Below are positions 3,570-38,199 of a stretch of DNA of 64,000 bases, in pieces. Below the pieces are notes generated by a model that worked only from the letters and a program-made list of their open reading frames with translations, was not told the DNA's origin and did no database searches. Every line of letters begins with the position of its first letter. Position 1 is the first letter of the stretch. Position numbers and translations under genes: made by a program. This DNA comes from a virus (Duplodnaviria; Caudoviricetes): the IMG/VR virus record IMGVR_UViG_3300025387_000015, positions 1 through 64,000 of that record; one strand, 5' to 3'.

Positions 3570-4592
3570 ATGACAAGTAAGATACTATCAGCAGCGATTG
3601 GCGCAGGAACGATAGCGGGAAACAGCACTAACTTGACTGTGTCCTCGAACGGTTCTGTTCAGCTAGCGGCTAATAACATTACTGAGATATACGCAGCTGC
3701 TAATGGTAATGTGGGAATCGGGAACTCCACGCCAGCAAATATATTATCAGTAAATGGTAATACTTTTATTGGTGGTAATATTGTTACTGGTTATCCTGGT
3801 TCACCTGGATATGTTTCAAATAAAAGTACTGCAGGGCAGTTTGATGTTGGTCTTCTTGGCGGCGATGCTGATGCATCTGGTTATCTTTATAACAGAAATA
3901 CTGGTGGTAATATTATATTTGGTTCTAATAATGTACAAAGAATGGCAATTTCTTCTGCTGGTGATGTTAATATCGGTGGTGCTACTGCTACTCCTCCTAA
4001 CAATCTTCGATATTTAGATCTTTATAACACAGAAACAACAAATGTTAATTCTGGTTCTATTATGCGTATTATCACAGCTAACTCTACAGGTGGAGCCGCT
4101 GTTACTGTTGATTTAGTAAAATATAGATATGGCGCTTTTAATATAAACAACAATGATGCTAATGGCACGATAAATTTTGGTACTGCTGGTACTAATCGTA
4201 TGACTATTGATAGTACCGGCAACCTACTGTTCAACTCAGGTTATGGTTCTGCGCAAAATGCTTATGGTTGTCGTGCATGGGTAAATTATCAGGCACAAGC
4301 AACAGTAGCCATTCGTGCCAGTCAAGGTGTTACTAGTATTACTAAAAATGGTACAGGTGATTATACAGTAAATCTTTCTTTTACAATGCCAGATATAAAT
4401 TATTCTTATGTTGTTGCAATATCATCGTATGTTGGAGGTACAACACTTGGTGCTACACCTATGCTTAATACAACAATTGGTGACGCAGAACAAGCACCAA
4501 CAACAACAACTTTCAGATTTGCTACTTGTGTGTGGAATGCTGGTTCTAGTGGACAAGACGCTAAGTATCTCAATATAATAGTAGTTAGATAG
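3570..4592 (+). CDS. tail fibre-like virion protein
   Basis: ANGNVGIG repeats and a C-terminal CRAWVNY...TGDYTVN beta domain typical of phage fibre tips; followed by chaperone-like genes. Confidence 0.65.
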   Translation: MTSKILSAAIGAGTIAGNSTNLTVSSNGSVQLAANNITEIYAAANGNVGIGNSTPANILSVNGNTFIGGNIVTGYPGSPGYVSNKSTAGQFDVGLLGGDADASGYLYNRNTGGNIIFGSNNVQRMAISSAGDVNIGGATATPPNNLRYLDLYNTETTNVNSGSIMRIITANSTGGAAVTVDLVKYRYGAFNINNNDANGTINFGTAGTNRMTIDSTGNLLFNSGYGSAQNAYGCRAWVNYQAQATVAIRASQGVTSITKNGTGDYTVNLSFTMPDINYSYVVAISSYVGGTTLGATPMLNTTIGDAEQAPTTTTFRFATCVWNAGSSGQDAKYLNIIVVR

Positions 4593-4601
4593 GAATTAAT
4601 T

Positions 4602-4856
4602 ATGACACAAAAGATTATATACCCACAAGAAAATGGTTCAATAGCAATGATTATACCAGCACCTAATTGCGGTATATCAATTGAAGAGATTGCTAGAAAA
4701 GATGTTCCTGCTGATACTCCATATCTCATATTGGATGATTCAGATATTCCGCATGAACATTCTGAATACTTCAATGCATGGGAAGCAGACTTTTCTGATC
4801 CGCATGGACATGGCATTGGGCATGAAGCATGGTTCAAGGAGCAAGAAACAAAATGA
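4602..4856 (+). CDS. tail fibre assembly-associated small protein
   Basis: IIPAP...IARKDVP...AWEAD pattern; overlaps the next chaperone gene by ATGA. Confidence 0.55.
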   Translation: MTQKIIYPQENGSIAMIIPAPNCGISIEEIARKDVPADTPYLILDDSDIPHEHSEYFNAWEADFSDPHGHGIGHEAWFKEQETK

Positions 4857-5092
4857 TAACTATCAATATGGACAAAGCAAAAGATATACATAAGAATAAA
4901 CTTCGTGCTGAAAGAGAACCAATTTTGAAAGATCTAGACGTTAAATTCCAGAGAGCGCAGGAAGATGGTTCAGACACTAAAGATATAGTCACTAAGAAAC
5001 AAGCACTCAGAGACGTGACGAAACATCCTAAACTACTCAACGCTGAGACTATAGAAGAATTGGCTGTGCTTACATTAGAAATATTAGTATAA
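4853..5092 (+). CDS. phage tail (fibre) assembly chaperone-like protein
   Basis: Start placed at the ATG at 4853 (ATGA overlap). LRAEREPILKDLD...KQALRDVT matches the R..R...L...D...RQALRD chaperone pattern. Confidence 0.6.
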   Translation: MITINMDKAKDIHKNKLRAEREPILKDLDVKFQRAQEDGSDTKDIVTKKQALRDVTKHPKLLNAETIEELAVLTLEILV

Positions 5093-9773: not shown

Positions 9774-10142
9774 ATGTCAGTAACATACACTTGGAAAGTA
9801 ACTGGTATCAAGACTACGTCAGTGGCAAACACTGCTGACGTCGTCGTCCAGACCTATTGGGAAAAAACTGGAACTGATGAGAATGGAAACTCTGGTACGT
9901 TCAATGGAGCGACCCCTTTCGCAGTTAACTCCAGTTTTGCTACTTCAAATAATTTTATTTCTTTTGACAAGCTAACAGAAAATACTGTTATCTCTTGGAT
10001 TCAAGCGGTAGTCGTTAATGAATATGAGAATCATGTTAATACGCGTATTCAAGAACTAATTAACGACGCTATTAATCCAGTCAAAGATACATCATTACCA
10101 TGGGCTAACGTGACATCTAATGTAGCAACCAGTAATACATAA
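9774..10142 (+). CDS. fibre-associated small protein, paralogue of 17581-17943
   Basis: MSVTYTWKVT...W.K.GTDE.G..G.F.G...F..LTE..V.SWI...PW pattern shared with the 17581 gene. Confidence 0.6.
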   Translation: MSVTYTWKVTGIKTTSVANTADVVVQTYWEKTGTDENGNSGTFNGATPFAVNSSFATSNNFISFDKLTENTVISWIQAVVVNEYENHVNTRIQELINDAINPVKDTSLPWANVTSNVATSNT

Positions 10143-10165: not shown

Positions 10166-12391
10166 ATGTCAGATAATTTTACATTCGTATCCAATGGCGT
10201 TCTATCCACTTATGTCTATGGTAACCAAGGTTCTTTCAATCAGGTAGCCAACGTGGCTGTAGCTGATGAAGTATATAATCTAAACGTATCTATCAACACG
10301 ACTTCAGTAAGCATCTCGAATCCTGATAATTCTATATCAATCACGTGCCCTAACACAGTTCAACAGTCTATTGGAACGTACTGGCTAAACTCAAACGGCG
10401 CGTGGTCAATAATAACACCAGCATCACTTGGTGTTCCAACAATAGCTCAACTTCAAGCAAATCTTGCAAGTCTCTCATCTTCAACATCAGCAAATATTAG
10501 TTCAGCAAACGCTGTAACAGCAAACCTAGCTTCATACACTGCAGCCAATAACGGGTTATTCGCAAACTCTTCCGGAACATTCGTAGTAGCAAATAATGGT
10601 GTTTCTGTTTCTTCTTCCGGAGTATCTGTCGTTGGTAACAGTGGAATAACAGTTGGTCCAGGCGGTGTATATGTTAATGCACAATATGGTTTATACGCTG
10701 TTCCCTCTGGATTATATGTAAAAGCAAACACTGGATTAACTGCAACAACTGATGGTTTATTCGTAAACAGTGCTTATTTAACAAGTTATATTGCTAATTC
10801 AACATCAAACAATTCTGTAAATCTTAATGGAATAATTGGTTCTGCGTATCAGTTAAATTCGACACTGGCCGCTAACGTAGCAACTATGACAGCCAATAGT
10901 GCTACTTATGTCAATGGAACAGCTGCCAGCAATTTCATAACAGCTTCACAGATCAGCGCAGCGTATCTACCTTTGGCTGGTGGGACTCTGACTGGCCCAC
11001 TTGTGTTTTATGAGACTGCCGGTGCAGCTTCTAATCAGTTCTGGTTAGGTAGAGGCGGTGTCACTGGCTCTGGCACATTCGCAATGTATGCACCATCTGG
11101 TTTTGGTTTGGAGTTTGGTATTGCTAATTCTGCCAAAATGTGGATGGATACCAATGGTGTTATGTATATTAACAATCAATTACAAACACCTAAAATCTAC
11201 GATTATGATAACACTGGTTATTATATTGATCCTGCATCAACATCAAATTTCAATGCTATAACTGCAGCGACTTTATATACAACAAATTATCTTTATATGG
11301 TGAATGGTATTAATGGTGGTGTCAACACAACAGGTGGTCCATTATTATATTCTGACAACACTAACTGGGTGTTAAAATCCGGAGGCGGAAATGGTTCTTG
11401 GTTAATACAGAATTATGCTGGAACTAATGTATCATCTTTTAATGCTTCTGGTCAGATGTATTTTAAAATATATTACGACAATGATAATACTGGATATTAT
11501 TGTGATCCTGCAAGTACTTCTCGCCTTGGAACAATGTGGGCAGACCAAATAAGATCACAAGATAACTGGTATCTGGACAGTCAAGGCAATCAAAGATTAT
11601 TAACACCTTATAATGATCATAATTATTACAGATCATGGAACTATCATGTATTTCGTAATTCAGCTGGAACTGATGTTCATTACATTGCTGGCGATGGCAA
11701 TGTATGGATGGGAACATATAAAGATTGGTTAAGCAGCCAGATTCGTTCTAATATATTTTATAGTCACAACAATAGTGGTTATTATACTAACCCTCAAAGT
11801 CAATCAAGAATGAGTAGTTGTAATTGGGATGTTAACGTTTGGAATTATTCATCTGATGGATGGAGAAGAATATATTATGCTAATGGCGATAGAACAATTT
11901 ATGAAGGTGGAACTACTGGTCAATGGGTTCATGAATTCAGAACACAAGATGATGCAGCTAGATGGCTTATGGCATATTCTGGTAATTTCTATGCTGGTGC
12001 AGATATAATATCTGCATGGTCTGATAGAAGAATGAAAAAGAATATTGAAAAGATTACAGATTGGAGAACAATTTTAGAAAATATTAATGGTTATAGATTC
12101 CAATGGAATGACATTGGTAAAAAAATAATGTCAACTGATAAAGACGAAATAGAAATAGGTCTAATTGCTCAAGAAGTTAAATCAGTATTACCTCAAGGTA
12201 CAGCAATTAATATGTTACAATATAAAGATGTGGGTATACCAAAAGATGGTATAGACTATGATCCTGAAAATCCATACTTATCAGTCAAAGAAGAAAAACT
12301 TATTCCAATTCTAGTTGAAGCTGTCAAAGCACAGATGTCGAAAATAGATGAACTAGAAGAAAAAATTAAAAATCTTGAAGCTCTAATATAA
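10166..12391 (+). CDS. long tail fibre protein with Peptidase_S74 chaperone
   Basis: Repeats of Y(D)xDNTGYYxDPASTS, then SAWSDRRMKKNI and EIGLIAQEVKSVLP, with a C-terminal coiled coil. Confidence 0.85.
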   Translation: MSDNFTFVSNGVLSTYVYGNQGSFNQVANVAVADEVYNLNVSINTTSVSISNPDNSISITCPNTVQQSIGTYWLNSNGAWSIITPASLGVPTIAQLQANLASLSSSTSANISSANAVTANLASYTAANNGLFANSSGTFVVANNGVSVSSSGVSVVGNSGITVGPGGVYVNAQYGLYAVPSGLYVKANTGLTATTDGLFVNSAYLTSYIANSTSNNSVNLNGIIGSAYQLNSTLAANVATMTANSATYVNGTAASNFITASQISAAYLPLAGGTLTGPLVFYETAGAASNQFWLGRGGVTGSGTFAMYAPSGFGLEFGIANSAKMWMDTNGVMYINNQLQTPKIYDYDNTGYYIDPASTSNFNAITAATLYTTNYLYMVNGINGGVNTTGGPLLYSDNTNWVLKSGGGNGSWLIQNYAGTNVSSFNASGQMYFKIYYDNDNTGYYCDPASTSRLGTMWADQIRSQDNWYLDSQGNQRLLTPYNDHNYYRSWNYHVFRNSAGTDVHYIAGDGNVWMGTYKDWLSSQIRSNIFYSHNNSGYYTNPQSQSRMSSCNWDVNVWNYSSDGWRRIYYANGDRTIYEGGTTGQWVHEFRTQDDAARWLMAYSGNFYAGADIISAWSDRRMKKNIEKITDWRTILENINGYRFQWNDIGKKIMSTDKDEIEIGLIAQEVKSVLPQGTAINMLQYKDVGIPKDGIDYDPENPYLSVKEEKLIPILVEAVKAQMSKIDELEEKIKNLEALI

Positions 12392-12394
12392 ATA
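12387..12394 (+). promoter_or_regulatory. T4-type late promoter TATAAATA upstream of the Cys-rich peptide/radical SAM cassette
   Basis: Exact consensus; AGGAG RBS at 12401-12405 and ATG at 12414. Confidence 0.7.
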
Positions 12395-12413
12395 GGGTAA
12401 AGGAGAAAAGAAA

Positions 12414-12611
12414 ATGGCTTACTATATAGGAGGAACAGCTGTAGTCGATACAACAACTTTAGAATATGTTTCTTATAATTATATTGGTGGAGATGGAGCT
12501 GGATTCAGATTAGTAACATGGCAAGTTGGAATTTATAAAAGCGGTCAAACAGTAGTTTGTGATTACGATAGTAATTGTAACTGTAATTGTAATTGTAATT
12601 GTGGCGGTTAA
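12414..12611 (+). CDS. 65-aa Cys-rich peptide ending CDYDS(NC)5GG, putative radical SAM substrate
   Basis: Strong RBS, its own late promoter, six C-terminal Cys residues, and two genes upstream of a SPASM radical SAM enzyme. Confidence 0.75.
   Translation: MAYYIGGTAVVDTTTLEYVSYNYIGGDGAGFRLVTWQVGIYKSGQTVVCDYDSNCNCNCNCNCGG
12573..12602 (+). repeat. hexanucleotide tandem repeat (AAYTGT)x5 encoding (Asn-Cys)5
   Basis: aattgt aactgt aattgt aattgt aattgt read directly from the sequence. Confidence 0.9.
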
Positions 12612-12612
12612 A

Positions 12613-13473
12613 ATGACTCCTATAAAATTATTAAATTATTTTGCTACGACATCATACAACCATCCTGAGTATATGGAAGTAACTCAGAAAGATGATAATA
12701 ATTTACAAGTTAATGCTAACATACTTCCTCCAAACAAACAACTCAGCTGGAATATAAATTTTGATGAACTTCTAAGATCAGAAGAATGTCAAAATGGAAT
12801 GGGTGTTTGGACTCTAACTGGTTTTGCCAGAAAAGATTTTCAAAACGTTGAAACTGTAATAACACCTCCATTACAGAATGAACTAAAAAGATATTATCAT
12901 GATAATTTTTTGGACTATGACGCTGCTTATCCTGGTCCAATTGAGAACAATCCTGTAATCAAAAACATAGGATATCTTTTCGTTTCAGAACAAGAGAAGA
13001 TATTATCTCTTGTTACTAATTATGTCTGTATAATAAAAACAAACATTAGATATAAAAGAATTGATCTTCATCTAGCCGAGTATCCATTTTTTCCTATAGA
13101 TGGCGCTAATAATGGTTATTTTATGACTGGTTCTATTACTGATAATACAGTGGCAAACCCATTGAATAAGCCAAGTCCATTTAAACTAAATTATAAAGGA
13201 CCAACTGAAGTATCTGGAAATAATTCTGTCAACTTAACCTTTGATGTTGAGTTTCAAAATTTAGACTTAAAACCATGGAGCTATGGTGATTATAACAAGT
13301 TATATGCAGTGACAGATAAAGGCACAGTTGATACTTCTTGTGTTATTACCAATAACTCAGGCTCATTATCTTTTAGCGCCGCAAACATGAATGTTGGTGA
13401 TACTGCTAATGTGAGAATTGGCGCTCATTGGTTCTACATATCAGAGGTATTTCAAATAACTAAAACTTCTTAA
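12613..13473 (+). CDS. hypothetical partner protein of the radical SAM cassette, with beta-rich (Ig-like?) C-terminus
   Basis: Start placed at the ATG at 12613, one base after the peptide stop; the ORF fills the gap to the rSAM gene and has no motif I recognise. Confidence 0.6.
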   Translation: MTPIKLLNYFATTSYNHPEYMEVTQKDDNNLQVNANILPPNKQLSWNINFDELLRSEECQNGMGVWTLTGFARKDFQNVETVITPPLQNELKRYYHDNFLDYDAAYPGPIENNPVIKNIGYLFVSEQEKILSLVTNYVCIIKTNIRYKRIDLHLAEYPFFPIDGANNGYFMTGSITDNTVANPLNKPSPFKLNYKGPTEVSGNNSVNLTFDVEFQNLDLKPWSYGDYNKLYAVTDKGTVDTSCVITNNSGSLSFSAANMNVGDTANVRIGAHWFYISEVFQITKTS

Positions 13474-13482
13474 GGATATAAC

Positions 13483-14766
13483 ATGTTTAAACTTGAGTTA
13501 CGAGATAGAGAAGGAAAAAATCATTATCTTTTTTATGATCCTCATAAGTCACTGATCACTGATGAAGATGGAAATGATATAGTTTCTAATATAAAAGAAA
13601 CTCAACAGTATAATACTGTTAAAGCAATATCTCCAGAAAATCATGGAAAGAAAAGTAAAAATATTAAAACACTAAAAATACAATTAGGATTGGCTTGTAA
13701 CTATTCTTGTTCTTATTGCAGTCAAAAAGAAGAAATTAAATTTGGATCTAAAACAAATATTAGAGATGCTGAAATATTCATGTCTAATTTGGATAAATGG
13801 TTAGTTGGTGAACCTAATAGAATTGAATTCTGGGGAGGTGAACCTTTATTATACTGGAAAAAGATAAAATTCCTTGTAGAGAAATTATCTGAAAAGTATC
13901 CTAAAACAGAGTTTCTTATTATATCAAATGGTAGTTTACTTACTGATGAAATAATCGAGTACATAGAAAAATATGATATTATATTTGTTATTTCTCATGA
14001 TGGCCCTGGACAACATGTTCGTGGACCAGATCCATTTGATGATGAAAATCAATTTAATATGATTAAAAAATTATATAATGTTAGAAAAAATAAAGATAAG
14101 ATGTGTTTTAATGCTATACTTTCTCCTGTTAATTACGACATAGAAAAAATTATTAGTTTCTTTAAAAATAAAATTGATGAAGATGTTAATGTTAACCTTG
14201 AAGGTGTTTTCATAAGTCATGAGGGTAACGATCAATATTTTACACAAGAACAATACAGTCAATTAACAAATAATGTTGCTCTTGCGTCTATGAAGCCAAG
14301 AAAAGAATTAATGGGTTGTTTTAATCATGCTATAAATGATTTTATAAAATCAATTGTCACAAAAAGGCCATCAGACTCTCTTGGTTTACATTGTGGAATG
14401 GACAGTGAAGATAAAATATCAGTTGATCTTCTTGGTAATGTAATGACATGTCAGAATACTGGTGCTTTGGGAAAACATAGAATAGGTAATATACAAGATT
14501 TTGATAATATCAAATTGAATACATCTTGGCATTGGAAATATAGAGATGAATGTTCTGAATGTCCTGTGTTACAAATCTGCCAAGGTTCTTGTATGTATAT
14601 GGAAGGAAAAAATTGGTATCATACTTGTAATAACTATTACCATTATAATATTGGTATTCTTGGGGGTGCATTATACCATATGACAGGTATGGTATTAACT
14701 GGAGTTTATGGCAAAATAAGAAGACCTAATCCAGAGCAATATGGAATTGAAGATACTAGCAAATAA
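13483..14766 (+). CDS. radical SAM enzyme with C-terminal SPASM domain (peptide/protein maturase type)
   Basis: CNYSCSYC (CxxxCxxC) and FWGGEPLL, then SPASM Cx13Gx4C followed by Cx2Cx5Cx3Cx11C (CSECPVLQICQGSC...C). Confidence 0.92.
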   Translation: MFKLELRDREGKNHYLFYDPHKSLITDEDGNDIVSNIKETQQYNTVKAISPENHGKKSKNIKTLKIQLGLACNYSCSYCSQKEEIKFGSKTNIRDAEIFMSNLDKWLVGEPNRIEFWGGEPLLYWKKIKFLVEKLSEKYPKTEFLIISNGSLLTDEIIEYIEKYDIIFVISHDGPGQHVRGPDPFDDENQFNMIKKLYNVRKNKDKMCFNAILSPVNYDIEKIISFFKNKIDEDVNVNLEGVFISHEGNDQYFTQEQYSQLTNNVALASMKPRKELMGCFNHAINDFIKSIVTKRPSDSLGLHCGMDSEDKISVDLLGNVMTCQNTGALGKHRIGNIQDFDNIKLNTSWHWKYRDECSECPVLQICQGSCMYMEGKNWYHTCNNYYHYNIGILGGALYHMTGMVLTGVYGKIRRPNPEQYGIEDTSK

Positions 14767-14773
14767 TAATTTG

Positions 14774-14781
14774 TATAAATA
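14774..14781 (+). promoter_or_regulatory. T4-type late promoter TATAAATA
   Basis: Exact consensus in the intergenic gap before the 14817 fibre gene. Confidence 0.7.
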
Positions 14782-17580: not shown

Positions 17581-17943
17581 ATGGCAGTCACTTACACTTG
17601 GGAAATAACTCAATTACACGTTTCTGATCTTCCAAATAATCCAAATACGGTAGCCAGTATATCTTGGAGAAAAATTGGAACTAATGAAGATGGAGTTATT
17701 GGTATTTATGAAGGAGGAACTAAATTTGATTTAGATGCTGTCGCTATTACTCTTGGTACTAATTCTAATACTAAATTCGTTGATTTCTCAGATCTTAAAG
17801 AAAAAACAATATTGAGTTGGATAAAGAAAAATATAGATAAAAGATACGAAGATTATATAAACAATTCTATTGATCAAAAAATAAATGAAAACAAATATAA
17901 CAAAAAAATTGTTGATTTCCCTTGGAAGAAAAATAAGGATTAA
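17581..17943 (+). CDS. fibre-associated small protein, paralogue of 9774-10142
   Basis: MAVTYTWEIT...W.KIGT.EDG...G.TKF...F.DL.E..ILSWI...PW. Confidence 0.6.
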   Translation: MAVTYTWEITQLHVSDLPNNPNTVASISWRKIGTNEDGVIGIYEGGTKFDLDAVAITLGTNSNTKFVDFSDLKEKTILSWIKKNIDKRYEDYINNSIDQKINENKYNKKIVDFPWKKNKD

Positions 17944-17945
17944 AT

Positions 17946-18656
17946 ATGTCTTTACCTGGTTCTGGGCAAATATCTTTAGGTGATGTAAGATCCATCATCC
18001 AACCAGGAGGTGGTCAAATAGATATGAACAATGGTAATGGTAGATATATGGCCCATGGTAGTTTTGATTATAACACATGGATCAGTATGAGTGATTTTCG
18101 TAACAAACCAAGTTCCGGTGGAATTAGTTATACTACCGGTAATGGATATGCAGTAAATACTTGGTATTCTTTCATTTGTCCTGCTTATCAAACCTTCGCA
18201 GCTTCAGTTAATGGTGGTGGTGGCGGCGGTGGTGGCGGAGATAACCACAATGGACCATATGGCAACAATGGTGATCCAGGCGGCCCAGGAGCTCCTACAT
18301 ATTTTCAGTTTCCTGGTTTCGTAAGTCACGGTTATGGTGGAGCTGCCGGTGGTGGCAATGCTGGTTGTGGAAACGTTGCTGCCGGTGGTGGCGCTGATGC
18401 CACAGGTGGTTTTGGTTCATTTACTGGAGGTGGGGCAGCAAACGGTGGTAGATGTGGTAATCCTCAACAAGGCGGAGCTTGGGGAGGAACTGGAGGTTCT
18501 GGTGGGACAGCTTATTCTGTTTTTACTTTTAATTCCAGCCCATACTATCCAGGTTATTCGTCAACGGTTAGCGTATATATAGGTAATGGTGGCACTGCTG
18601 GCCCACAAAATGCTGGACCTGGTGGCGCTGGATATGTTAATGTATCTTGGTCTTAA
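17946..18656 (+). CDS. glycine-rich distal adhesin (gp38-like)
   Basis: N-terminal MSLPGSGQISLGDV...ISMSDF attachment-like segment, GGGGGGGG and repeated GGxGG loops, ending GYVNVSWS; sits downstream of an S74 fibre, as gp38 follows gp37 in T2/T6-type phages. Confidence 0.6.
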   Translation: MSLPGSGQISLGDVRSIIQPGGGQIDMNNGNGRYMAHGSFDYNTWISMSDFRNKPSSGGISYTTGNGYAVNTWYSFICPAYQTFAASVNGGGGGGGGGDNHNGPYGNNGDPGGPGAPTYFQFPGFVSHGYGGAAGGGNAGCGNVAAGGGADATGGFGSFTGGGAANGGRCGNPQQGGAWGGTGGSGGTAYSVFTFNSSPYYPGYSSTVSVYIGNGGTAGPQNAGPGGAGYVNVSWS

Positions 18657-19203: not shown

Positions 19204-20769
19204 ATGGATAAAATTATATCTAGGGAATGGATCCCTAATGACTCTAAATTTTATGCAGTTTCAGATTCTTTCAATAGCAAAGTTCAAGAATTTTCAAAAG
19301 AACAACTTTGTGTTATTATAGATTATTATAAAAACAAATTAGTAGACGCTGGCGTTGAACCTGGGCAAAAAATAGGAATAGGATTTGCCTCTACAGATAT
19401 TTCTTATACCGCTATTATTTTTGCTGCAGCCGAACTTGGTCTTAAGTTAGTAGTTCTCAACACTCTTACTTCTTTAAGGTTGATCAAATCCGCTAAATGT
19501 AGTGCTCATATGCCACTAGATGTATTTGTGTATTACCAATATAGGAACACTCATTTAGATCAGCTATTGAGAAATATCAAATACTATATTAATAATTCAA
19601 AAAAAGTTATACAAATAGATACAAATTGGTCATCAGAATCAATAAATTCTATTCCTAGAATTCCATTATACGCAAAACCAGAAAATGATTTATTGTTGTG
19701 TAGCAGTTCTGGAACAACTGGTGCACCAAAATTAATACATCACAACCAAGAATACCTTTACGATTTGGCAAAATACAACTGGGAACCATTAGAATTAAAC
19801 GAAAATGATTCTGTATATCATTTTTCTAGTTTGAATCATGGAGCTTCTCTGAGTGTGTTTTTCTTACCTGCCGTAAATAAATGTAAGAAACATTACTTTG
19901 ATTTACCAACAGAACTAAGAAGTCAAATAGATCACGAAAAAAACTTTGTATTCCAAGCATGTAAATTGTGCAACATTACTGTTATATTATCTCCGAACAA
20001 TAATATAACCGATGGTATAATTGAAGCTATACAGGATTCAGAAGATGGTTTACCAAATACGACAATTATAGTTCTTACTTTTATTAATCCTAGATGGTTA
20101 AATGTAGTAAAATCTGGCAAACTAAAAAAGATTATAAGCGCATTTGGATGTTCAGAAGCAGGTGGTCCAATATTACTGCCATACATAGATAAAAACACAG
20201 ATATAAATTCTTTTGATCCTAAATTTCTAGGAAAACCATTAGAAGGGTTTTTCAAAACAAACGTAGTTGATGGTATGTTAACAGTAAATCTTCCTAATGG
20301 AAATACCGTAGAAACAGAAGACATCATCAAAGAAACAGAAAATGGTTATTATTTTGTAAGAAAAAACAAACTTAAAAAAATAAATGATATTGACATAAAT
20401 CCTTTAGACATAATTGGATTACTTGAAACATACTGTTCCAGAAGCAGATTTGAAATAGTAATCGAAGAAGTTTACAATAAACTTTACATAGTTACTGACA
20501 ACCAAACCATGATAGACTATGAAGATGATATAAAGAAAATAATTAAAAATTTCTACGACGGGGAAGTAAACCTAACAGCTGTTATTTTCATGCCTAATTT
20601 TTCCGATGCTATAGTTTCAATAAAACCTGATAGGGACATTCTTTTAGACTACATTAGAGAAAGAGATTACTTCATGGGAAGCGTAGATGGTTTACCAAAT
20701 ATTCCACGTAAAGCTGTTGAAACTTTTTTTAAAACAATAAATGAAGAAATTAAGAAAATAAATAAATAA
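19204..20769 (+). CDS. ANL-superfamily (AMP-binding/acyl-CoA synthetase-like) adenylation protein, divergent
   Basis: LLLCSSSGTTGAPKLIHH (A3 P-loop), FGCSEAGG (YGxTE-like) and a degenerate TED (TGD-like) motif; 521 aa. Confidence 0.7.
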   Translation: MDKIISREWIPNDSKFYAVSDSFNSKVQEFSKEQLCVIIDYYKNKLVDAGVEPGQKIGIGFASTDISYTAIIFAAAELGLKLVVLNTLTSLRLIKSAKCSAHMPLDVFVYYQYRNTHLDQLLRNIKYYINNSKKVIQIDTNWSSESINSIPRIPLYAKPENDLLLCSSSGTTGAPKLIHHNQEYLYDLAKYNWEPLELNENDSVYHFSSLNHGASLSVFFLPAVNKCKKHYFDLPTELRSQIDHEKNFVFQACKLCNITVILSPNNNITDGIIEAIQDSEDGLPNTTIIVLTFINPRWLNVVKSGKLKKIISAFGCSEAGGPILLPYIDKNTDINSFDPKFLGKPLEGFFKTNVVDGMLTVNLPNGNTVETEDIIKETENGYYFVRKNKLKKINDIDINPLDIIGLLETYCSRSRFEIVIEEVYNKLYIVTDNQTMIDYEDDIKKIIKNFYDGEVNLTAVIFMPNFSDAIVSIKPDRDILLDYIRERDYFMGSVDGLPNIPRKAVETFFKTINEEIKKINK

Positions 20770-37560: not shown

Positions 37561-38199
37561 ATGGAGTATTTCATTGAGAACAAAACAACATTACAACTAT
37601 TTCCTAGTTTAGTGTTTCAGGGTAAGATAAATGATGATAGTCTGTGTGATAGATTAGAAGAATATCTTTTGTCTTTGTGGAAAAATAAAGAGGGAATATT
37701 TGCCGAAGAAGAGGGGTTTACTTCTCACGATAATCTAAATGATAAACCAGAATTAAAAGAGTTATCTGATATTGTTTTGAAAGAAAGTAATTTTATACTA
37801 AATTTCTTTAAAGTAAAAAGAGACTCGCATTTTATAACTTCAATGTGGGCGAATATTTCTAGAGGAAGAAATATGCATCTAAAGCATATTCATCCTAATT
37901 CTTTTTTAAGTGGAGTGTTTTATGTTAAAACTCCAAAAGATTGTGGTCAGTTAGTAATAACAGACCCAAGACCTGGAAGTGAAGTAATACAACCAGACTA
38001 TCATGAACGTGATGTATATAATTGTGGAAAGTATCATATTATACCAGAAAAAGGTAATATACATTTTTGGCAGAGTTGGTTGCCTCATTGTGTAGAAAAA
38101 GCATATTCTAAATCAGAAGAGAACAGAATATGCATTGCCTTTAATATTATGATAAAAGGTAAAGCTGTGAACCCAACTCAGAGATATGATTTTAATTGA
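37561..38199 (+). CDS. 2OG-Fe(II) oxygenase-like protein
   Basis: H.H.HPNSFLSGVFYV, F.SWLPH.V and NRICIAFN. Confidence 0.8.
   Translation: MEYFIENKTTLQLFPSLVFQGKINDDSLCDRLEEYLLSLWKNKEGIFAEEEGFTSHDNLNDKPELKELSDIVLKESNFILNFFKVKRDSHFITSMWANISRGRNMHLKHIHPNSFLSGVFYVKTPKDCGQLVITDPRPGSEVIQPDYHERDVYNCGKYHIIPEKGNIHFWQSWLPHCVEKAYSKSEENRICIAFNIMIKGKAVNPTQRYDFN

Follow-up and report, generated by a model that had tools for sequence, protein, structure and literature searches.

A candidate radical SAM maturation cassette for a tail-fibre tip component of a T4-like aquatic phage

Introduction

What is a radical S-adenosylmethionine (SAM) enzyme doing among the tail-fibre genes of a phage, next to a small protein that ends in five Asn-Cys repeats? 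The question is raised by the IMG/VR viral record IMGVR_UViG_3300025387_000015, which derives from an uncultured T4-like aquatic phage and has an estimated completeness of 46%. We analysed the first 64 kb (hereafter, the window) of its 76.5 kb. Here, three adjacent open reading frames (ORFs) encode a 65-aa protein with a C-terminal (Asn-Cys)5 tail, a 286-aa protein that we term MID, and a radical SAM enzyme with a SPASM domain. An earlier, sequence-only reading of this DNA had suggested that the phage makes a crosslinked or metal-loaded peptide, akin to the peptides that are made on ribosomes and modified after translation (RiPPs), as a virion component. The linkage of the three genes to one another, and of the set to tail fibres, stood up to examination; the chemistry, the incorporation into the virion and the late timing are parts of that interpretation that we infer.

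To judge from the genes that they carry together, such phages very probably modify a component of the fibre tip chemically, and we hold with good confidence that the enzyme modifies the alternating-cysteine (Cys-X) tail of that component. To the full statement, that the genes form a late maturation cassette which would install thioethers in the fibre-tip tail and whose product would enter the virion, we assign a probability of about 0.6. Proteolysis and the chainmail of the HK97 capsid are the main known routes by which virus particles mature covalently. If the proposal is true, enzyme-installed radical crosslinks in a host-recognition fibre would amount to a new principle of virion assembly, and radical SAM chemistry of the RiPP type would be extended from secreted peptides to viral structural proteins. 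The apparent novelty lies in SPASM chemistry applied to a structural protein of a virus, and in MID as a putative new helper family.

Co-occurrence of the tail, MID and the enzyme

In a forward test, IMG/VR was scanned with an alignment of the enzyme, pattern scans of viral contigs with a single peptide or enzyme sequence having returned no relatives. The scan gave at least 548 enzyme-encoding stretches, from which 80 loci were kept; individual loci are cited below by L numbers. A strict tail was defined as at least four alternating cysteines (C-X-C-X-C-X-C) within the last 22 residues of an ORF. An ORF of this kind is found on the strand of the enzyme in 55 of the 80 loci, upstream of it in every case, and on the opposite strand in one of the 80, where it is a simple repeat. 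When the count is restricted to distinct enzymes for which 4 kb or more of upstream DNA is available, the strict tail accompanies 52 of 64, and at least five of the other 12 have a shorter C-X-C tail. The homologues, in other words, do not usually lack such a peptide.

The reverse test selected viral contigs solely by a degenerate DNA pattern encoding NCNCNCNC, which yielded 119 stretches. In 69 of these the pattern forms the C-terminal tail of an ORF, and the enzyme family is present in 53 of the 69; 15 of the 16 tail-bearing stretches lacking it have less than 3 kb of downstream DNA. By comparison, matches that are not tails, mostly simple repeats or giant-virus DNA, are accompanied by the enzyme in one case out of 50. 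The co-occurrence of an (NC)n peptide, a middle gene and a radical SAM/SPASM enzyme, which the sequence-only reading had proposed from this one locus, thus holds in both directions. A quick tree places the pairing of tail and enzyme across the whole enzyme family rather than in one clade.

The window contains the set in full: three genes adjacent at 12414-14766, the middle one matched by a hidden Markov model (HMM) of MID and the last encoding an enzyme of phrog_1802 type. A minimal version is carried by a cultured phage, Ralstonia phage RSP15 (Ackermannviridae; L001, 4422-8332), in which ...NTNCQCGN forms the end of ORF048, the side tail fibre, after which come the MID homologue ORF047, ORF046 and the enzyme, ORF045. 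This phage is a possible experimental model. The system is widespread: the enzyme is encoded in at least 548 viral stretches, the helper family comprises about 1,000 clusters, and the carriers include abundant aquatic T4-like phages besides RSP15.

Linkage to tail fibres

The tailed proteins range from 55 to 704 aa, and their length turns out to be informative. All eight long tailed proteins that were tested (307-704 aa) match tail-fibre PHROGs, two of them with collagen triple-helix repeats. The self-cleaving Peptidase_S74 (S74) domain is absent from all eight, whereas it occurs in nine of ten proteins encoded just upstream of stand-alone tailed proteins. The same split appears over all loci, using a purpose-built S74 HMM and counting tailed proteins of at least 250 aa as long: of 61 stand-alone tailed proteins, 42 have an S74 ORF no more than 5 kb upstream, and of 35 long ones none does (Fisher p 1e-12). 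A window of 5 kb was used because helper genes often intervene, which weakens the signal from the nearest upstream ORF (10/39).

An S74 fibre sheds its C-terminus after trimerisation. It therefore cannot keep a C-terminal tail, and a separate small protein that bears the tail is a natural solution. In the window, PF13884 is detected in both genes that flank the cassette (E 3e-14 and 2e-15), which bears out the placement between two S74 fibre genes, and the association of the peptide with fibres is now seen in both forms, the long tailed proteins being tail fibres and the short ones coming after S74 fibres. The 741-aa S74 fibre encoded immediately upstream is the likely partner of the 65-aa protein, which would be placed functionally at its end.

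The tailed protein

The 65-aa ORF ends CDYDSNCNCNCNCNCGG (...VVCDYDSNCNCNCNCNCGG), and its tail is the sole in-frame Cys-X-Cys-X-Cys-X-Cys tract in the 76.5-kb record. A second Cys-X tract at record position 74836-74856 was discarded, as it falls in an overlapping frame of another gene. The 65-aa protein found no match by tblastn against 50,697 phage records. Homologous small proteins do occupy the same position in L010 (61 aa, 44% identical), L015, L017, L019, L020, L024, L025 and others; they share a MAYK.G.T.V.D start and the invariant tail cysteines. The short tailed proteins, that of the window included, have a common N-terminal MAYK-G-T-V-D...IDW-R-I-N-P motif, and the window protein is a shortened member of the group, its closest relative being the L010 protein, which comes after a 770-aa S74 fibre.

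Relatives have between about 2 and 12 Cys-X units, and 34 of 60 tails end exactly on a cysteine. The residue between the cysteines is Asn in 149 instances, Ala in 49, Asp in 33 and Arg in 12, with a few others. The (NC)5 tract in the window is an imperfect in-frame hexanucleotide repeat (AATTGT/AACTGT); taken with the varying unit number, this suggests that slippage could alter tail length.

Genes for such tails are easily overlooked. In the window, the middle protein has been called in the database as P0121 (304 aa) from a GTG at 12559, so that the call runs across the (NC)5 codons in a different frame; homologue alignments favour the ATG at 12613. The Cys-rich ORF of L007 (4830-5087) was missed entirely by gene calling. 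Automatic annotation hence tends to miss tail genes, and the pattern of the tail cassette gives annotators a rule by which to find these short genes. L007 also presents three tandem paralogous small fibre-type proteins (4464-5087); cysteines are absent from the first and second (57 and 58 aa), and the C-terminal tail of the third is very dense in them (...NCACVCACCCCCACCCNC).

The radical SAM/SPASM enzyme

The enzyme contains the radical SAM motif CNYSCSYC (C72/C76/C79), WGGEP at residues 117-121, and a seven-cysteine SPASM pattern: C304, G318x4C323, C357xxC360x5C366x3C370 and C382. The CxxxCxxC motif, WGGEP and the SPASM cysteines are invariant across 30 homologues of 41-68% identity. Membership of the radical SAM superfamily is supported by PF04055 (E 3.6e-11, 44 bits versus a cut-off of 29.5) and that of the SPASM group by TIGR04085 (35.9 bits versus 27), in agreement with the complete SPASM motif that the first reading had reported. 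PHROG 1802, a strong match, is annotated just as 'radical SAM domain-containing protein'.

Assignment to a characterised family was a different matter. The best NCBIfam match, the PapB model NF047865 (E 2.5e-24, residues 61-372), scores 86.1 bits against a cut-off of 340; the corresponding values are 62.1 against 425 for SCIFF maturases (TIGR03974), 60 against 453 for the QhpD-type model, and 33.7 against 349 for anaerobic sulfatase maturases (TIGR03942). An AlphaFold2 model (pLDDT 90.9) has as its nearest solved folds CteB (5WHY/5WGG), ChlB (9GM3), the anaerobic sulfatase-maturating enzyme anSME (4K39) and TigE (8VPO). It matches the folds of CteB and anaerobic sulfatase maturase over approximately 380 columns, the best structural match being CteB 5WHY (Foldseek E 8e-13, TM 0.56). 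At its N-terminus, the model has a three-strand beta unit (residues 2-26) that is too small for a winged-helix RiPP recognition element (RRE). Judged by its motifs and predicted fold, the protein is a SPASM enzyme that modifies peptides or proteins and belongs to an uncharacterised family.

The middle protein

MID belongs to no Pfam or PHROG family. A tblastn search of the 50,697 phage records gave no match and an ESM Atlas search no usable one, and its direct sequence relatives among 5.8 billion proteins are itself and two fragments only. An iterated HMM, built on the fetched loci, was far more revealing: it places MID beside the enzyme in 65 loci, and a profile search of 1.8 billion representative proteins returned 1,084 clusters, 874 of them at E <=1e-10. 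In most cases the MID gene stands between those of the tailed protein and the enzyme, but it can also come downstream of the latter, which means that gene order varies while the set is kept. Two glycines are the only invariant residues among 38 members.

The AlphaFold2 model of MID (pLDDT 71, pTM 0.62) is all-beta, with a well-predicted C-terminal domain (residues 185-286) that resembles the Ig domains of intimin/invasin type (Z 9.8, rmsd 2.5 over 87 residues). Foldseek and VIA returned generic Ig-like sandwiches only, namely nanobodies, intimin, macroglobulin domains and pilus chaperones at similar Z, and barely covered the N-terminal half. Such generic matches do not allow a specific function to be read from them. 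From its sequence and modelled fold, MID is presumed to be a non-catalytic adaptor or chaperone.

Expression of the cassette

A box of the T4 late-promoter type, TATAAATA, precedes the 65-aa gene. The motif is no more frequent in the window than chance would have it (11 copies found versus 9.4 expected). For nine of the 11 copies, however, an ORF on the same strand starts 24-43 nt downstream (binomial p ~4e-16), a non-random placement that fits T4-type late promoters. The 919-aa fibre gene downstream, which marks the end of the cassette, has its own box at 14774-14781. Late expression of the cassette is suggested by this motif.

Relation to known systems

By function, the closest characterised systems would be NxxcB/NxxcA, PapB, CteB and CrpC/CrpA, and on the NCBIfam matches listed the enzyme is a member of none of them. 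According to a review of streptococcal radical SAM RiPPs (PMC9389541), the bond made by NxxcB is between Cys and the Asn beta-carbon; the Cys is required, and Ala, Gln or Asp can take the place of Asn as the acceptor. Like the phage enzyme, it is of the SPASM type and has a Cys/Asn substrate; N-C-N-C contains the NxxC spacing, and the tolerance for acceptors mirrors the Asn, Ala and Asp found between the cysteines of phage tails. No NxxcB model is among the NCBIfam matches listed. NxxcA, on the other hand, is a short, secreted, quorum-regulated streptococcal peptide with one crosslink, whereas the phage cassette is viral, presents 4-12 alternating C-terminal cysteines on a fibre-type protein or a whole fibre, and includes an additional Ig-like partner.

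PapB/PapA (freyrasin) and CteB/CteA (SCIFF, thermocellin), which provide the best NCBIfam and the best structural match, introduce several thioethers into a repetitive Cys-rich core. CteB differs in having a winged-helix leader-binding domain where the phage enzyme has a short three-strand unit, and the motif of the presumed phage substrate, C-X-C, differs from C-X3-D and from the SCIFF motif; the product probably stays on the virus particle.

A precedent for modification of a whole protein comes from CrpC/CrpA of Methanococcus voltae, where a SPASM enzyme installs thioether (ranthionine) links on a Cys-repeat protein (Dieter et al. 2026; PMC13692751). Both systems have a three-cluster SPASM enzyme and a substrate with a conserved N-terminal part and a C-terminal repeat region. 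CrpC/CrpA is nonetheless archaeal and cellular, with 17-residue repeats containing C-X-X-Q/D motifs and a predicted RRE domain in CrpC; its model TIGR04463 matches the window enzyme weakly (E 4e-11, cut-off 525 bits), and the CrpC/CrpA paper makes no mention of viruses. Together, the acceptor parallel with NxxcB and the CrpC/CrpA precedent make thioether formation the most likely reaction, which homology does not establish.

Full-text literature searches turned up no paper in which a radical SAM enzyme acts on a phage fibre, in line with the sequence-only reading, which knew of no characterised system of this kind. In a paper on cyanophages, a radical SAM maturase is entered as an 'antibiotic synthesis gene' and left unanalysed (PMC12801897).

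Proposed mechanism

We propose that the three genes constitute one late-transcribed cassette for maturation of a tail-fibre tip component. The 65-aa protein would be a miniature fibre-type protein, and its (Asn-Cys)5 tail the substrate. The enzyme would cleave SAM reductively and take a hydrogen from a residue beside or near each cysteine, Asn in the window protein; the cysteine sulfur, held on an auxiliary Fe-S cluster, would then be joined to that carbon. The tail would end up with as many as five or six thioether rings in a ladder, with 2 Da lost per ring. The Ig-like MID, in which no catalytic residues are conserved, would most likely hold or present the substrate, given that a leader-recognition (RRE) domain is absent from the enzyme itself. 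In fibres that do not shed their C-terminus, the same tail is fused to the fibre end; where fibres end in a self-cleaving S74 domain, it is borne by a small protein of its own, which presumably becomes part of the processed fibre tip. Thioether chemistry is suggested by the enzyme class and the acceptor spectrum, and virion incorporation of the tailed protein by the fused fibre forms and the gene position.

A further elaboration strikes us as unlikely. The thioethers could be made after trimerisation, possibly between chains, such that the fibre tip becomes a covalently locked, protease- and redox-resistant 'cysteine ladder', possibly carrying metal, with the repeat number and the X residue tuning host recognition or environmental stability in hundreds of phage lineages. 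Were this so, the maturation of virions by enzymes would gain a new class.

Several observations weigh against the proposed thioether cassette. Many loci are near-copies, and the co-occurrence counts consequently overstate the number of independent observations. Scores far below the cut-offs of every characterised family mean that the type of reaction cannot be transferred by homology. A paralogue with 68% identity (L011/L013) sits, without a Cys tail, beside a PP-loop-like protein and a Cys-free 98-aa protein, and a 44%-identical homologue on a Ramlibacter chromosome sits beside a YcaO-nitroreductase fusion with neither Cys tail nor MID; the enzyme clade alone, it follows, does not dictate the substrate. 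Oxygenase-like or second radical SAM genes added to related cassettes imply that the chemistry may exceed simple thioethers. Lastly, alternating cysteines could equally be metal ligands, and in a beta strand all of them would face one side.

Alternative explanations

The alternative that survives best keeps the substrate and changes the chemistry: the enzyme might oxidise Cys to formylglycine in the manner of the anaerobic sulfatase maturases, epimerise residues, form C-C links, or prepare the tail for metal binding along a trimeric needle. We consider this conceivable but rather unlikely. That the enzyme reaches the cut-off of no characterised family leaves room for it, as do the 2-oxoglutarate (2OG)-Fe(II) oxygenase-like genes of relatives, which hint at further modification of Asn or Asp. 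The anaerobic sulfatase maturases (anSME; PDB 4K36-4K39) are also among the best matches: they share the SPASM architecture, act on a protein Cys, and supply the second-best PDB sequence match (4K37, E 2.6e-16) and a top fold match (Foldseek E 3e-11). They act, though, on a single Cys or Ser in a C/S-x-P-x-R motif, and the cassette contains neither that motif nor a sulfatase gene, its presumed substrate having many alternating cysteines instead. The tail composition, Asn before Ala before Asp, matches the reported acceptor spectrum of the thioether former NxxcB.

For metal binding, the instructive comparison is with the tip of T4 gp37, whose His-x-His iron sites form spontaneously, with no dedicated enzyme. 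The resemblance is one of alternating ligand-type residues at the distal end of a trimeric T4-type fibre; the difference is that in the phage cassette a radical SAM enzyme is kept with the motif. Metal binding alone needs no dedicated three-cluster enzyme retained alongside the tail in hundreds of phages.

A second alternative, which we regard as improbable, is that the 65-aa protein is the precursor of a free RiPP, whose crosslinked core would be freed on lysis to act as a toxin, a signal or a metallophore; that its gene lies among fibre genes would then be incidental. In size, 'leader-like' N-terminus and Cys-rich 'core' it does resemble RiPP precursors; its enzyme is of the classic RiPP maturase class, and the bacterial homologue resides in a RiPP-like cluster with a YcaO enzyme. 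A canonical RiPP cluster would nevertheless offer more than a precursor-like small protein, and the gene list and a domain scan of the neighbours revealed no leader protease, exporter or transporter, or immunity gene in or near the cassette, the neighbours being fibre, neck and sheath genes. More tellingly, the same tail is the C-terminus of proteins of at least 250 aa in 35 distinct relatives, those tested being tail fibres without exception, while the small forms have a fibre-type N-terminal motif and sit directly after S74 fibres. The late-promoter box, moreover, puts the 65-aa gene in the structural operon.

That there is no functional link at all, the (NC)5 tract being a translated (AATTGT)n repeat, if an imperfect one, and the enzyme serving, for example, DNA or nucleotide modification like the phage radical SAM enzymes of thymidine hypermodification (PMC8989533), is very hard to credit given two-way co-occurrence over very diverse phages, non-repetitive codon usage and varied X residues, and a DNA-hypermodification role as for the Ackermannviridae radical SAM enzymes was ruled out by the enzyme type (SPASM peptide-maturase rather than nucleotide-modifying) and the gene context (the structural module, outside the DNA-metabolism module).

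Variation among relatives

In many related cassettes, MID is separated from the enzyme by a 2OG-Fe(II) oxygenase-like gene (~210-250 aa) or by two or three of them, and a second, shorter radical SAM gene (~335 aa) lies directly before the main one among L025, L049, L050, L061, L066, L073, L086, L127 and L128. The window cassette has neither an adjacent oxygenase-like gene nor a second radical SAM gene.

The record IMGVR_UViG_3300025382_000007 carries two paralogous radical SAM cassettes ~14 kb apart (L010 and L013; also L004 and L011). That of L010 has the Cys tail and MID. The L011/L013 cassette contains a PP-loop-like 353-aa protein with an SGGIDS motif and proteins of 98 and 231 aa, near genes for a 2OG oxygenase, a cupin, an aminotransferase and a hydrolase. 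The idea that the window enzyme is a deletion chimera of these two cassettes was rejected, as it is 68% identical to both throughout and the informative sites alternate.

The RiPP-like cluster of Ramlibacter (L214, 4901-10745) encodes a TPR protein, the YcaO-nitroreductase fusion, a 63-aa one-Cys peptide, a 330-aa protein unrelated to MID and an acetyltransferase. In Achromobacter phage JWF the enzyme comes after a fibre gene, with no tail or MID detected, and the homologue is annotated as an anaerobic sulfatase-maturating enzyme.

Features and gene neighbourhood of the cassette

All of the elements named in the sequence-only reading, from the promoter-like box and ribosome-binding site to the three ORFs, were found again where it had put them (Table 1). 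The few nucleotide matches of the window are to tail-fibre genes of Pelagibacter phage HTVC008M, to marine single-cell viral contigs and to T4-like cyanophages. The cassette is embedded in a T4-type structural module with several Peptidase_S74 fibre genes and DUF7936 small proteins, and with a T4 neck protein and the gp15 sheath stabiliser downstream.

Table 1. Positions of the cassette and its flanking fibre genes in the window
Feature	Coordinates	Strand	Description
Upstream tail-fibre gene, 741 aa	10166..12391	+	C-terminal S74 self-cleaving chaperone domain; PF13884 E 3.3e-14, residues 619-677; tail-fibre PHROGs
TATAAATA, T4-type late-promoter-like box	12387..12394	+	Overlaps stop codon of upstream fibre gene
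AGGAG ribosome-binding site	12401..12405	+	8 nt before ATG at 12414; read from sequence
Gene of 65-aa fibre-type protein, presumed substrate	12414..12611	+	ORF; N-terminal MAYYIGGTAVVD motif, C-terminal (Asn-Cys)5 tail
(Asn-Cys)5 codons, N54-C63	12573..12602	+	Followed by Gly-Gly and stop
MID gene, 286 aa, presumed helper protein	12613..13473	+	ATG 1 nt after peptide stop codon; unnamed all-beta family
Radical SAM/SPASM enzyme gene, 427 aa	13483..14766	+	PF04055, TIGR04085, phrog_1802 E 7e-61
Downstream tail-fibre gene, 919 aa	14817..17576	+	Gp34_trimer and Peptidase_S74 PF13884, E 2e-15

Two DUF7936 paralogues frame the fibre genes, one of 122 aa (9774-10142) preceding the first S74 fibre and one of 120 aa (17581-17943) coming after the second. 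The latter is followed by a 236-aa Gly-rich protein (17946-18656) without a Pfam match, which may be a gp38-like adhesin; in that event each fibre set would have an ending of its own, the (NC)5 protein in one and the Gly-rich protein in the other. The sole PF13759 gene of the window is located at 37561-38199, 23 kb from the cassette. Between the second fibre set and the neck genes lies a gene for a 521-aa AMP-binding (adenylate-forming) enzyme (19204-20769, PF00501 E 7e-13), and an enzyme of this type inside a fibre/neck module is unusual for a structural operon.

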